From Escherichia coli (lineage in GTDB: Bacteria; Pseudomonadota; Gammaproteobacteria; Enterobacterales; Enterobacteriaceae), in the NCBI RefSeq assembly GCF_003334355.1, contig NZ_QOWP01000077.1: a stretch of DNA of 2,235 nt; one strand, written 5' to 3'. This document shows positions 1-2,235 of the stretch, piece by piece. Position 1 is the stretch's first letter, and the number at the start of each line of letters is the position of its first letter. The notes below the pieces were generated by a model. That model was not told where the DNA came from and made no database searches. It saw only the letters and a list, made by a program, of their open reading frames with translations. The position numbers and the translations under genes are program-made.

Positions 1-159
1 AAACCAGACGGGTTAACGGCAGCAAAGAACCTTGCAGAGGCGTTCGAGCATTATAACGAATGGCATCCGCATAGTGCACTGGGTTATCGCTCGCCACGGG
101 AATATCTACGGCAGCGGGCCAGTAATGGGTTAAGTGATAACAGGTGTCTGGAAATATAG
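1..159 (+). CDS. insD: IS2 transposase OrfB (InsD), C-terminal 52 codons; 5'-partial at window edge
   Basis: Open frame 1 from position 1 to TAG at 157..159; the translation carries the [18 protein letters not shown] motif. Confidence 0.8.
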
Positions 160-170
160 GGGGAAATCCA
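130..170 (+). repeat. IS2 right terminal inverted repeat (inner boundary approximate)
   Basis: Terminal sequence ends in GGGGGAAATCCA at 170, as recalled for the IS2 right end; it overlaps the OrfB stop codon. Confidence 0.65.
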
Positions 171-244
171 ATGAACACCTCCCTCTCGAGATTTTTAAAC
201 AAAGCACATTGAAAAATAAATCTCTCTGGGATTGAATTATTCAT
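171..244 (-). pseudogene. 5' stub (24 codons, MNNSIPERFIFQCALFKNLEREVF) of a small gene, probably ymgC, interrupted by IS2; the frame reads on into IS2 with no stop before the window edge
   Basis: Minus-strand ATG at 244..242 preceded by a good Shine-Dalgarno (GAGG, plus 250..253, 5-nt spacer). The position, downstream of ariR on the same strand, is where ymgC lies in the K-12 ycgZ-ymgABC operon. I cannot confirm the YmgC N-terminus from memory. Confidence 0.4.
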
Positions 245-356
245 GTCAGCCTCGTAGAAATATTAACCCAATAAAATTATGCTGTGTATAGTCTAAAGCG
301 ACAGACAAAAATAAGATGAATGAGTTTTCTATAAACTTATACTTAATAATTAGAAG

Positions 357-623
357 TTACATATCATCAGCTGTGTATCGCAACACGATTTCCAGTGTTT
401 TTCTAATCACATCAGCTTTGAGAATATCACTTGTTGTTTCCAGGGAGTGTATCAGACTTAAGATAATATTTTTATTATTAACATTATCGCCTGAAAGCAT
501 TAAATTGGTGACAGCCTGCCCTAACACTGCTGACTCTTCTTCTAACAAATTACCCGAACTGCGAAAGTAACTTGCTAACGCTTTATCAGTTATTGCATTA
601 TGAATTGTAGTATCTTCAAGCAT
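357..623 (-). CDS. ariR: AriR/YmgB, small regulator of acid resistance and biofilm (88 aa)
   Basis: Complete 88-aa ORF with Shine-Dalgarno GAGAGG (plus 629..634) 5 nt upstream of the ATG. Length, sequence and operon position match the recalled E. coli AriR. Shares the L-G-x-x-V-T...N...K...L-E pattern with the ycgZ product. Confidence 0.9.
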
Positions 624-651
624 GGTAACCTCTCATCTTACTTATGAAATT

Positions 652-924
652 TTAATGTATTCTGTTTATTTTCTTACCATTGAACATACTTTTATTGTCA
701 GCTGTCGCTGTTCTTCGGTTTGGCCCTCCTGAATCACTATTGCTAAAATCACGAATTATGCTGTCAATTAAATCGCGTCGGAAAGCATCTTCCTCAGCCG
801 ATTTCATTACGAGTAATTGCTTAATAAGAGTCTGCAATGAAAAATTTATCTTCATGCGCAGTATCTGGAGCACCGCCTGGCCAGTAATTTCATATTTTAT
901 ACGTTCATTATCAGATGTCTTCAT
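652..924 (-). CDS. ymgA: YmgA, small connector protein of the ycgZ-ymgAB operon (90 aa)
   Basis: Complete 90-aa ORF lying 42 bp downstream of ycgZ and 28 bp upstream of ariR on the same strand. Contains a GQAV motif shared with AriR. Own Shine-Dalgarno is weak (GAAG); a 4-codon overlapping upstream ORF is described in findings. Confidence 0.88.
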   Translation of the reverse strand: MKTSDNERIKYEITGQAVLQILRMKINFSLQTLIKQLLVMKSAEEDAFRRDLIDSIIRDFSNSDSGGPNRRTATADNKSMFNGKKINRIH

Positions 925-966
925 AACGACTTCATAGCTAACCTGTTAAATAATCAGGCTGTTGCA

Positions 967-1203
967 TTATTCAAAAAGCAACCCAATTAGTGCATTATAA
1001 TGTTTCTGTTCCTCTTCCCCTGTCGCTTGTTCCAGTCGGCAAAGAAGTTTGGCACAAAGCGACTTTCGACTCAGATTACGTCCATCTTTCAAAATCTCAG
1101 TCACAATTTCCCCGAGAGTTTCCTGCTGAGTAGGCAAGTTAGCTTTTGCAAAGTAACGAGTGATTGCTCCCGCAGAATCTGAAGTCACTGAATTTTGATG
1201 CAT
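967..1203 (-). CDS. ycgZ: YcgZ, first gene of the ycgZ-ymgA-ariR operon (78 aa)
   Basis: Complete 78-aa ORF with Shine-Dalgarno AGAGG (plus 1211..1215) 7 nt upstream of the ATG. Clear similarity to AriR (YF...LGEIVTEILKDGRNLSRKSLCAKLLCRLE against [29 protein letters not shown]). Divergent from bluF as in K-12. Confidence 0.9.
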   Translation of the reverse strand: MHQNSVTSDSAGAITRYFAKANLPTQQETLGEIVTEILKDGRNLSRKSLCAKLLCRLEQATGEEEQKHYNALIGLLFE

Positions 1204-1259
1204 GCTACGCCTCTGTTAAAAATGTTAATCAATGTGAAGTGAGGTAACAATAGCAAACT

Positions 1260-1278
1260 TGTACGAAATATGTGTACA
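1260..1278. promoter_or_regulatory. Inverted repeat TGTAC-N9-GTACA, candidate repressor operator
   Basis: TGTAC at 1260..1264 and GTACA at 1274..1278 are reverse complements separated by 9 bp, about 57 bp upstream of the ycgZ ATG. Confidence 0.25.
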
Positions 1279-1297
1279 GAATGATAAATTAATTTTT

Positions 1298-1316
1298 TGC
1301 AATTAGTGCTAATGCA
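1298..1316. promoter_or_regulatory. Imperfect inverted repeat TGCAATTAG-TG-CTAATGCA, candidate operator
   Basis: Left arm TGCAATTAG (1298..1306) and right arm CTAATGCA (1309..1316) are reverse complements apart from a single-base indel. Confidence 0.25.
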
Positions 1317-1516
1317 TATAAAACAATGTGTTATGATAAAAAATATTGCATCATTTAACTGACAATCTATACAAGATTTTTCGCCAACTAGTGTTCAACT
1401 TTTTCCATTTTTTATCAATGTAAAGAAACGGTTATGTTTTGGTATTAAAAGAAAGACACAAGAAGATATGTCTGTTACCGTCTTACTCTCGCCTCACCCA
1501 TTACCCTGGATTGTTA

Positions 1517-2116
1517 ATGCTTACCACCCTTATTTATCGTAGCCATATACGTGACGACGAACCTGTCAAAAAAATCGAAGAAATGGTTTCGATAGCAAAT
1601 CGCAGGAACATGCAGTCTGACGTAACAGGGATCTTACTGTTTAATGGTTCTCATTTTTTCCAGCTTCTGGAAGGTCCGGAAGAACAGGTTAAAATGATAT
1701 ATCGGGCTATATGCCAGGATCCACGGCACTATAATATTGTTGAGCTGCTGTGCGATTACGCGCCTGCTCGCCGTTTTGGCAAAGCGGGAATGGAATTATT
1801 TGATTTGCGCCTGCACGAGCGAGATGACGTTTTACAGGCCGTATTCGACAAAGGCACATCAAAATTTCAGCTAACTTATGATGACAGAGCGCTACAATTT
1901 TTTCGTACTTTTGTCCTTGCAACCGAACAATCAACCTATTTCGAGATCCCTGCCGAAGACTCCTGGCTTTTTATCGCTGACGGATCTGATAAAGAACTTG
2001 ATTCCTGTGCCCTTTCACCAACTATAAACGACCACTTTGCCTTTCATCCTATTGTCGATCCCTTATCGCGGCGGATAATCGCTTTTGAAGCCATTGTGCA
2101 AAAAAATGAAGATTGA
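1517..2116 (+). CDS. bluF: BluF/YcgF blue-light antirepressor, N-terminal 199 aa only (intact BLUF domain, EAL domain cut off just after its signature); truncated by IS3 insertion, likely pseudogene
   Basis: MLTTLIYRSHIRDDEP...GILLFNGSHFFQLLEGPEEQV is a BLUF photoreceptor signature. FHPIVDPLSRRIIAFEAIVQ corresponds to the start of an EAL domain, but the ORF stops 5 codons later at the TGA (2114..2116) that is the first triplet of an IS3-type terminal repeat. Recalled full-length BluF is about 403 aa. Start placed at 1517 rather than the track's 1439. Confidence 0.85.
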   Translation: MLTTLIYRSHIRDDEPVKKIEEMVSIANRRNMQSDVTGILLFNGSHFFQLLEGPEEQVKMIYRAICQDPRHYNIVELLCDYAPARRFGKAGMELFDLRLHERDDVLQAVFDKGTSKFQLTYDDRALQFFRTFVLATEQSTYFEIPAEDSWLFIADGSDKELDSCALSPTINDHFAFHPIVDPLSRRIIAFEAIVQKNED

Positions 2117-2152
2117 TCCTACCCACGTAATATGGACACAGGCCTAAGCGAG
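2114..2152. repeat. IS3-type terminal inverted repeat (about 39 bp from recall; inner boundary approximate)
   Basis: Starts with the TGATCC typical of IS3-family ends (5'-TG...), abutting bluF codon 199. Confidence 0.65.
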
Positions 2153-2235
2153 GTTCTGGTTTTCAAATTGTTCCGGACTGAGGCCGCCACACCAACTGTG
2201 CCGCCGCCACCGATTGTAATCACATTCGATATAAT
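2144..2235 (-). CDS. IS3-family transposase OrfB, C-terminal fragment; 5'-partial at window edge
   Basis: Minus-strand frame open from the window edge to TAG (plus 2146..2144); the translation ends ...YNRWRRHSWCGGLSPEQFENQNLA. Confidence 0.7.
   Translation of the reverse strand, partial: YIECDYNRWRRHSWCGGLSPEQFENQNLA

Follow-up and report, generated by a model that had tools for sequence, protein, structure and literature searches.

In E. coli K-12, the ycgZ-ymgABC module is controlled by BluF and BluR and is arranged around a divergent promoter region (Tschowri et al. 2009, 2012; PMC3509220). BluF antagonises BluR by direct binding, and operator mutations derepress ycgZ (PMC3509220). Transcription starts 36 nt upstream of the ycgZ start codon and 30 nt upstream of that of bluF, and the operator motif consists of GTACA repeats (PMC3509220). 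We have analysed a 2,235-nucleotide stretch of E. coli DNA (the window) in which the genes of this module, their order, the divergent promoter region and the operator are the same as in K-12. Unlike the K-12 module, however, the window encodes a BluF cut off behind residue 199, and ymgC, the fourth gene of the operon, ends after codon 24. In our reading, to which we assign a probability of roughly 85%, the window is a segment of an E. coli chromosome close to those of strains PSS-12 and ATCC 8739 that received two simple IS insertions, with a predicted loss of BluF anti-repression.

The core of the window (171-2113, 1943 bp) differs from K-12 at nine positions and has no gaps, giving 99.5% identity. 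It matches E. coli ATCC 8739 with 100% identity and is one base away from commensal E. coli PSS-12. Three intact genes lie on the minus strand: ariR (ymgB; 357-623, 88 aa) and ymgA (652-924, 90 aa), whose proteins are identical to those of K-12, and ycgZ (967-1203, 78 aa), which carries three substitutions relative to K-12 (positions 8, 24 and 59). These substitutions are common to PSS-12, and the ycgZ DNA of the window is identical to that of PSS-12 and of ATCC 8739. The divergent ycgZ/bluF control region (1204-1516) contains three SNPs relative to K-12 (1236, 1243 and 1342), all of them outside the BluR operator TGTACACATATTTCGTACA (1260-1278), which is identical to that of K-12. Transcription would be expected to start near 1239 for ycgZ and near 1487 for bluF. 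Its gene order, together with a divergent promoter that contains the BluR operator and the products YcgZ, YmgA and AriR, identifies the segment as the ycgZ-ymgABC/BluF-BluR module, and the preliminary description was right that the sequences of the three small genes and of their control region are intact. No RNA family in Rfam matched the window, and a search for repeats inside it returned short chance matches only.

On the left, the segment adjoins the right end of an IS2 isoform (1-170, plus strand; IS2 positions 1162-1331), which is identical to K-12 IS2A at 164 of 170 positions (96.5%) in an ungapped alignment. The reading frame at 1-156 (plus strand), with its stop codon at 157-159, specifies the 52 C-terminal residues of the IS2 transposase and differs from the K-12 InsD tail by a single substitution (C to S). 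The IS2 tip, ...AAATCCA, has its last base at position 170 and closes the right terminal inverted repeat (approximately 130-170). Compared with the 41-bp terminal repeat of IS2 of K-12 (IS3 family, IS2 group), the window copy differs at two positions. Position 163, eight bases from the tip, is G in the window and C in every other copy examined, making this C-to-G change private to the window lineage; it recurs in a contig found in five sequencing runs.

The full element can be seen at the same ymgC site in PSS-12. Alignment of this genome to K-12 showed that the homologous flanks overlap by 5 bp (K-12 reverse-complement positions 5180-5184), with ATGAA on either side of a complete 1331-bp IS2 isoform. 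That copy is 95.7% identical to K-12 IS2A over 1331 bp, with 57 substitutions and no gaps, so that both it and the end in the window lie within the identity of about 95% or more that is expected of an IS2 isoform. Its terminal inverted repeats are imperfect, and a programmed -1 frameshift joins its two overlapping ORFs; RefSeq names its transposase merely an 'IS3 family transposase'. The window's own IS2 is visible over its last 170 bp. Based on PSS-12, ATGAA at 171-175 of the window is the right-hand copy of the 5-bp target-site duplication characteristic of IS2, both copies of which are present in PSS-12.

What is left of ymgC (171-244, minus strand) amounts to 74 nt, which by alignment to the K-12 gene comprise the start codon, 24 of 82 codons and 2 nt. 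The remnant ORF continues into IS2 and in PSS-12 yields an 81-aa fusion ORF, where the remnant is annotated as 'YmgC, missing C-terminus'. Exact-protein look-ups returned no match for either variant of the 81-aa YmgC'-IS2 fusion or for a 33-aa junction ORF; a 34-aa edge-of-contig version of the junction ORF did give matches.

On the right, the last 122 bases of an IS3 element (2114-2235, minus strand) are identical to K-12 IS3A at 121 positions; the K-12 element has 1258 bases, of which these 122 are visible in the window copy. Its terminal sequence TGATCCTACCCACG... is common to K-12 IS3 and the window. The terminal inverted repeat begins at 2114, with the correct tip, TGATCC, abutting the target, and the last 29 residues of InsF are encoded at 2147-2233 (minus strand, stop codon 2144-2146) with one substitution relative to K-12, K to Q, near the C-terminus. 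We regard the IS matches on both sides as exact matches to named elements and not as chance resemblance. The two right ends face inward, as the preliminary description had stated, and the genes at both edges are indeed broken.

The broken gene on this side is bluF (1517-2116, plus strand; native over 1517-2113), of which codons 1-199 of 403 remain, identical to K-12. Its stop codon, TGA (2114-2116), is provided by the first three bases of the IS3 end. The truncated protein retains the BLUF domain and the linker, and its degenerate EAL domain runs to just beyond the EAIVQ motif, whose position was taken from PMC3509220, and Pfam BLUF is recorded for an identical 199-aa product. Many public contigs encoding this 199-aa product end in native GATA or GATAG, or exactly at GAT without any IS bases, and these were discarded as evidence of insertion.

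The other IS3 junction was found in a contig (L035) with the orientation and genetic background of the window. It reads ...GGGTAAGATCA followed by GAT and AGCCC, and the native K-12 sequence at the insertion site is GAT followed by AGCCC. Beyond GAT come the 3' end of bluF, an intact bluR, ycgX and icd, and over 3.6 kb this contig shows no mismatches and one 1-bp gap relative to PSS-12. On this basis, GAT at 2111-2113 is the left-hand copy of a 3-bp target-site duplication; the duplication combines the window junction with a reciprocal junction from a different sample (SRR3823860) that is unlinked to the samples carrying the double bracket. The preliminary description had considered that the IS-like segments might be short relics without complete elements beyond the window. 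As far as this can be tested, the complete, duplication-flanked IS2 of PSS-12 speaks against it, as does, on the IS3 side, the reciprocal junction with the rest of bluF beyond it.

Taken together, these observations suggest that an IS2 isoform inserted in ymgC after codon 24, duplicating ATGAA, and that IS3 later inserted in bluF after codon 199, duplicating GAT. The IS2 insertion is placed earlier because PSS-12 has IS2 while its bluF is still intact, and both insertions are considered simple because of the ATGAA duplication in PSS-12 and the GAT duplication at the reciprocal IS3 junction. The inward orientation of the two right ends would then be a coincidence. Among 5426 complete E. coli genomes, the IS3/bluF junction is absent and the IS2/ymgC junction occurs in PSS-12 only, which differs from the window at 2 of 2113 positions. 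No complete genome carries both junctions together. Exact junction patterns returned nothing from JGI metagenomes or GTDB species representatives. With its structure, identities, duplications in relatives and reproducibility demonstrated, the bracket is real, and it constitutes ordinary strain polymorphism.

On sequence grounds, the regulatory module is broken although the three ORFs survive. With most of its EAL-like domain absent, the truncated BluF would not be expected to act as a functional BLUF-EAL anti-repressor and would probably have become largely or wholly unable to remove BluR from the ycgZ promoter. Since bluR has its own promoter and would lie intact downstream, as it does in the reciprocal-junction contig, we predict that ycgZ, ymgA and ariR stay BluR-repressed, and that their induction by blue light and low temperature has probably been removed. 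Their remaining expression would be basal, sigma-S-dependent and MarA-dependent only. The accessory last gene of the operon, ymgC, would be lost, and operon transcripts would now enter IS2. Two-hybrid data show contact with BluR even for the N-terminal part of BluF on its own (PMC3509220), and for this reason the 199-aa product might retain some activity. IS3-family right ends carry an outward -35 (reviewed in PMC9330008). A scan of either junction found no consensus-like hybrid promoter, with overall counts at shuffle level, and no consensus-like terminator; manual inspection of the IS2 junction showed no usable -10. Read-through from the IS3 transposase, which runs in the same direction as ycgZ, could provide some BluR-independent transcription.

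The bond that follows GAT at bluF codon 199, between 2113 and 2114, has been entered more than once and independently: by IS3 in the orientation of the window, by IS3 in the opposite orientation (L003, L008 and L036) and by IS911 (L004).

These three insertions lie on three different core haplotypes. Just upstream of the site, an A-tract leads into TGAAGAT, in which TGAAG matches the IS911 tip over its first five bases. IS3 flanks at other loci had been chosen by BLAST for their similarity to the query and are unusable as an unbiased target consensus. We propose only tentatively that IS3-family elements have a true insertion hot spot at this bond.

Alternatively, the recurrent hits could reflect selection that favoured a BLUF-only product or a null allele of bluF, in line with the suggestion of the preliminary description that the locus was under selection to be remodelled. 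The insertions would then have been favoured because they silence the light and cold signals that enter through BluF-BluR-Ymg-Rcs, for instance in a lineage restricted to a host or kept in the laboratory. The three IS insertions, independent of one another, at a single bond on three haplotypes speak for this, as do the frameshift at the same spot and the operon loss in Shigella sonnei, and further IS hits in bluF, ymgA and ymgC among complete genomes. However, a target preference of the transposases accounts better for hits at one identical site, as selection for null alleles would scatter hits over the gene. Approximately 90% of complete E. coli genomes (4890/5426) retain the core in one place, and the three codon-199 junctions are all absent from the 5426, so that each allele is rare and there is no sign of a sweep. 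Selection is also not needed, because, in an even sample of 58 complete E. coli genomes, 5 (~9%) have some IS within the 1.9-kb core. We consider adaptive remodelling unlikely.

Even less likely is that one or both junctions are breakpoints of IS-mediated deletion or inversion, such that the segment is no longer beside the rest of ymgC or bluF. The window ends inside both IS elements and so stops short of the DNA beyond them, and S. sonnei shows that IS-mediated deletion occurs at this locus. Against this, the IS2 junction in PSS-12 is a simple insertion with a 5-bp duplication, and the reciprocal IS3 junction has a 3-bp duplication and a matching background. The bracket had also been described as a substrate for rearrangement. 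This holds for each IS together with other copies of itself; recombination of IS2 with IS3 is excluded because their nucleotide sequences are not homologous (the best match covers 14 nt, E = 0.58). For the same reason a composite transposon or mobile cassette moving ycgZ-ymgA-ariR as a unit, which a small gene cluster with an IS at either side might bring to mind, has practically no standing: the IS2 and IS3 ends and transposases differ, there are neither two copies of the same IS nor ends for one transposase, and the segment occupies its native position in the chromosome, with 12 of 5002 core matches on plasmids. Nor is there any real prospect of an assembly artefact joining IS ends to the locus in a chimeric contig: the window resembles a short-read contig, its left edge comes directly after IS2 base 1161, which is variable between IS2 isoforms, and many public contigs begin at the same IS2 coordinate, but both junctions abut exact IS tips with the expected duplications, the left one is present in the complete PSS-12 genome, and an identical contig was recovered from five independent public sequencing runs (ERR4578542_267, 2002 bp, an exact substring of window positions 141-2142 with both junctions included). 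The window is probably a whole short-read contig ending where repeats collapse.

The practical consequences are small. The junctions can serve as lineage markers, with IS3/bluF in 0 of 5426 complete genomes and the double bracket in at least five public runs. A strain with this allele is predicted to have lost the induction of AriR and YmgA by light and cold, together with the Rcs activation that these proteins trigger, and this could shift biofilm and acid-resistance phenotypes. The case also illustrates how ORFs, here three, may look intact although their regulation is broken. The locus has little importance beyond strain typing; the apparent bluF hot spot is the only point of wider interest. 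Were it a true hot spot, it would offer a natural, sequence-defined target for studying target choice by IS3-family transposases and a recurrent route to BLUF-only BluF proteins.

The double bracket had been taken to suggest an IS-rich, Shigella-like genome. Its nearest relatives are instead the ordinary E. coli strains PSS-12 and ATCC 8739, and the two IS ends of the window have only about nine further matches in PSS-12, about two of them to the IS2 end. The ymg/bluF locus of S. sonnei is built differently. As in the window, IS2 and a further IS adjoin bluF, and bluF is inactivated at the very same position. In contrast to the window, ariR, ymgA, ycgZ and the control region of S. sonnei are deleted, with IS1 in their place, and its IS2 lies elsewhere and in the other orientation. 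Its bluF lesion is a 4-bp deletion and not an insertion, yielding a 198-aa product, and could be the scar of an insertion followed by excision.

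Our analysis showed that an intact ycgZ-ymgA-ariR segment lies between IS2 and IS3 and that ymgC and bluF are both broken, as the preliminary description had proposed; the identities along the window agree with each part of this arrangement. Positions 1-170 (plus strand) align without gaps to 1162-1331 of K-12 IS2A (164/170 identical) and form the right end of IS2, encoding the last 52 residues and stop of its transposase InsD (1-159, plus strand) with one residue unlike K-12. The first 74 nt of ymgC follow (171-244, minus strand), as judged by alignment to K-12. On the other side, 2114-2235 (minus strand) corresponds, in reverse complement, to the final 122 bases of K-12 IS3A (121/122 identical) and carries the last 29 residues and stop of the IS3 transposase InsF (2144-2233, minus strand), also with one residue unlike K-12. 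The right ends do face inward, their tips adjoining the core at 170 and 2114. Between them, 171-2113 (1943 bases) differs from the K-12 ymgC-bluF region by nine mismatches and no gaps. Three genes on the minus strand are intact: ariR (357-623) and ymgA (652-924), with products identical to those of K-12, and ycgZ (967-1203), whose product has three substitutions. The 313-bp divergent control region between ycgZ and bluF (1204-1516) contains the BluR operator TGTACACATATTTCGTACA, as defined in PMC3509220, at 1260-1278 and in the same form as in K-12. Only codons 1-199 of bluF are left (1517-2113, plus strand); these residues are identical to K-12, and the TGA stop is the tip of IS3.

The junctions were also sought in short-read data by predicting the gene-caller products expected at contig edges and looking these up. 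A 34-residue YmgC'-IS2 product carrying a private variant of the window led to the 2002-bp Logan contig ERR4578542_267, which was found as the same contig in five samples and is an exact substring of the window (141-2142) with both junctions included. The window's left edge directly follows IS2 position 1161, where IS2 isoforms differ, and the start coordinate (1162) recurs in contigs from 185 blocks of the public collection. The window is probably one entire short-read contig, cut off where repeats collapse, which would account for its unusual length.

PSS-12, an isolate from human faeces in Ecuador, is the only one of 5426 complete E. coli genomes in which the IS2/ymgC junction was found in one piece. 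At ymgC it carries a full-length IS2 isoform of 1331 bp (95.7% identity to K-12 IS2A), with a frameshifted two-ORF transposase and ATGAA on either side. The window and PSS-12, in which bluF is intact, differ at 2 of 2113 positions (163 and 251). At the first, eight bases from the tip in the right terminal repeat of IS2, the window has a private G, whereas all other IS2 and isoform copies examined have C. The G is real, since the contig common to the five samples has the same base, and it might reduce further transposition by this copy. Many E. coli plasmids match window 111-187 at 88.5%, a stretch comprising an IS2-like right end and, past the tip, 17 bases similar to the ymgC target; either a common target preference or an alignment extended by chance may account for this.

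The IS3/bluF junction was absent from all 5426 complete E. coli genomes searched. The product predicted for the reciprocal junction led to a 13-kb contig of SRR3823860, which opens with the left end of IS3 in the window's orientation; after this come GAT, the remainder of bluF, and bluR, ycgX and icd. Over 3.6 kb the contig matches PSS-12 with no mismatches and one 1-bp gap. Taken together, the two junctions indicate a 3-bp GAT duplication and a normal downstream context, SRR3823860 being a separate sample that may also carry the IS2 insertion. Both elements therefore probably entered as simple insertions, the IS2 duplication being seen in PSS-12 and the IS3 one by way of this other sample. 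The K-12 IS3A annotation (1255 bp) omits the first three bases of the left end (TGA), the element being 1258 bp.

The 199-residue BluF product also occurs on other contigs with different elements at the same bond (window 2111-2116). IS3 stands after GAT in the opposite orientation in three records (left end at L003 10598-10626 and L008 8065-8093; L036 1-31), and the sample behind L008, SRR27009658, has the reciprocal junction too, GAT duplication included. A fourth record has the left end of IS911 there (L004 10598-10625), an identity confirmed by the IS911 literature and plasmid annotations. These represent three insertion events (two IS3 orientations and IS911) on three different core haplotypes. 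All three junctions are missing from the 5426 complete E. coli genomes, which marks each allele as rare. This sequence pattern suggests that the codon-199 bond is a target-site hot spot for the IS3 family, with ascertainment biased because the cases were found by querying the exact product. In Shigella sonnei (L031, about 6585-6600), a 4-bp deletion, GAAG[ATAG]CCC, falls exactly at the IS3 target (corresponding to window 2110-2113 plus the bases that follow) and yields a 198-aa BluF, which was seen on hundreds of contigs. Slippage between AG repeats, or an insertion that was later excised and left a scar, could have produced the deletion.

A composite transposon was ruled out, as IS2 and IS3 have no nucleotide similarity above chance (best match 14 nt). 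By the same comparison the two cannot recombine with each other, and the deletions or inversions envisaged in the preliminary description would need further copies of the same element. That both right ends point inward is coincidence. An IS in this locus is nothing out of the ordinary, and complete E. coli genomes show many further independent ones. When the ranking of complete genomes was sampled evenly, 5 of 58 genomes with the full core (~9%, counting genomes as they stand, shared ancestry included) proved to have an IS within it. Strain HS has an IS3-family element and an O157:H7 strain has IS1203 in ymgA; the others are IS1A, ISVsa5 in bluF and a second IS3-family element. Other records have IS2 within ymgA, or IS3, flanked by a GTC duplication, at codon 40 of bluF (L002 6448-7705). 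Selection to remodel the locus is thus unsupported, and the bracket amounts to a commonplace insertion polymorphism, with known elements and a locus that has been well studied.

What would the insertions do to regulation? BluF binds the MerR-like repressor BluR and frees the ycgZ promoter in blue light and at low temperature, and ycgZ-ymgA-ymgB(ariR)-ymgC is transcribed as a single mRNA (PMC3509220). Substitutions in the EAL-like domain of BluF reduce derepression, and an operator mutation derepresses ycgZ as much as deletion of bluR does (PMC3509220). Since the degenerate EAIVQ motif comprises BluF residues 191-195 (PMC3509220), the IS3 insertion removes all but four of the residues that follow it. 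Based on these observations, we predict that BluF cut at residue 199 acts as a weak anti-repressor or as a null. BluR would still be produced, as bluR has its own promoter and is intact in the SRR3823860 contig, and ycgZ, ymgA and ariR would remain repressed, with light and cold induction lost. In two-hybrid assays the N-terminal part of BluF on its own was still able to contact BluR (PMC3509220), so the truncated product may retain residual activity. Loss of ymgC, which is accessory and absent from other enterobacteria (PMC3509220), probably matters little. Neither junction gave a hybrid promoter or terminator in a consensus scan, leaving IS-driven expression unsupported; any read-through out of the IS3 transposase gene would be sense to ycgZ.

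As to the source, the core is 100% identical to that of E. coli ATCC 8739 (record NZ_CP022959, from a silver-adapted derivative) and one base unlike PSS-12, which on sequence makes ATCC 8739, a strain in wide laboratory and QC use, a close lineage. The window's strain may have been derived in the laboratory from one like ATCC 8739. In PSS-12 the window's two IS ends have about nine further matches, about two of them to the IS2 end, and the median over all genomes is five places matching the whole window. The preliminary description was therefore right about the structure and only partly supported in its interpretation: an IS-rich, Shigella-type genome is not indicated, because the S. sonnei locus is quite different and the core is that of ATCC 8739. 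In S. sonnei (L031 3596-5940), ariR, ymgA, ycgZ, the control region, pdeG, ymgF and ycgH have been replaced by IS2 and IS1, and only remnants of ymgC and bluF remain beside bluR. Its IS2 is further off and in the opposite orientation to that of the window, and its bluF is frameshifted, whereas the window's is interrupted by IS3.
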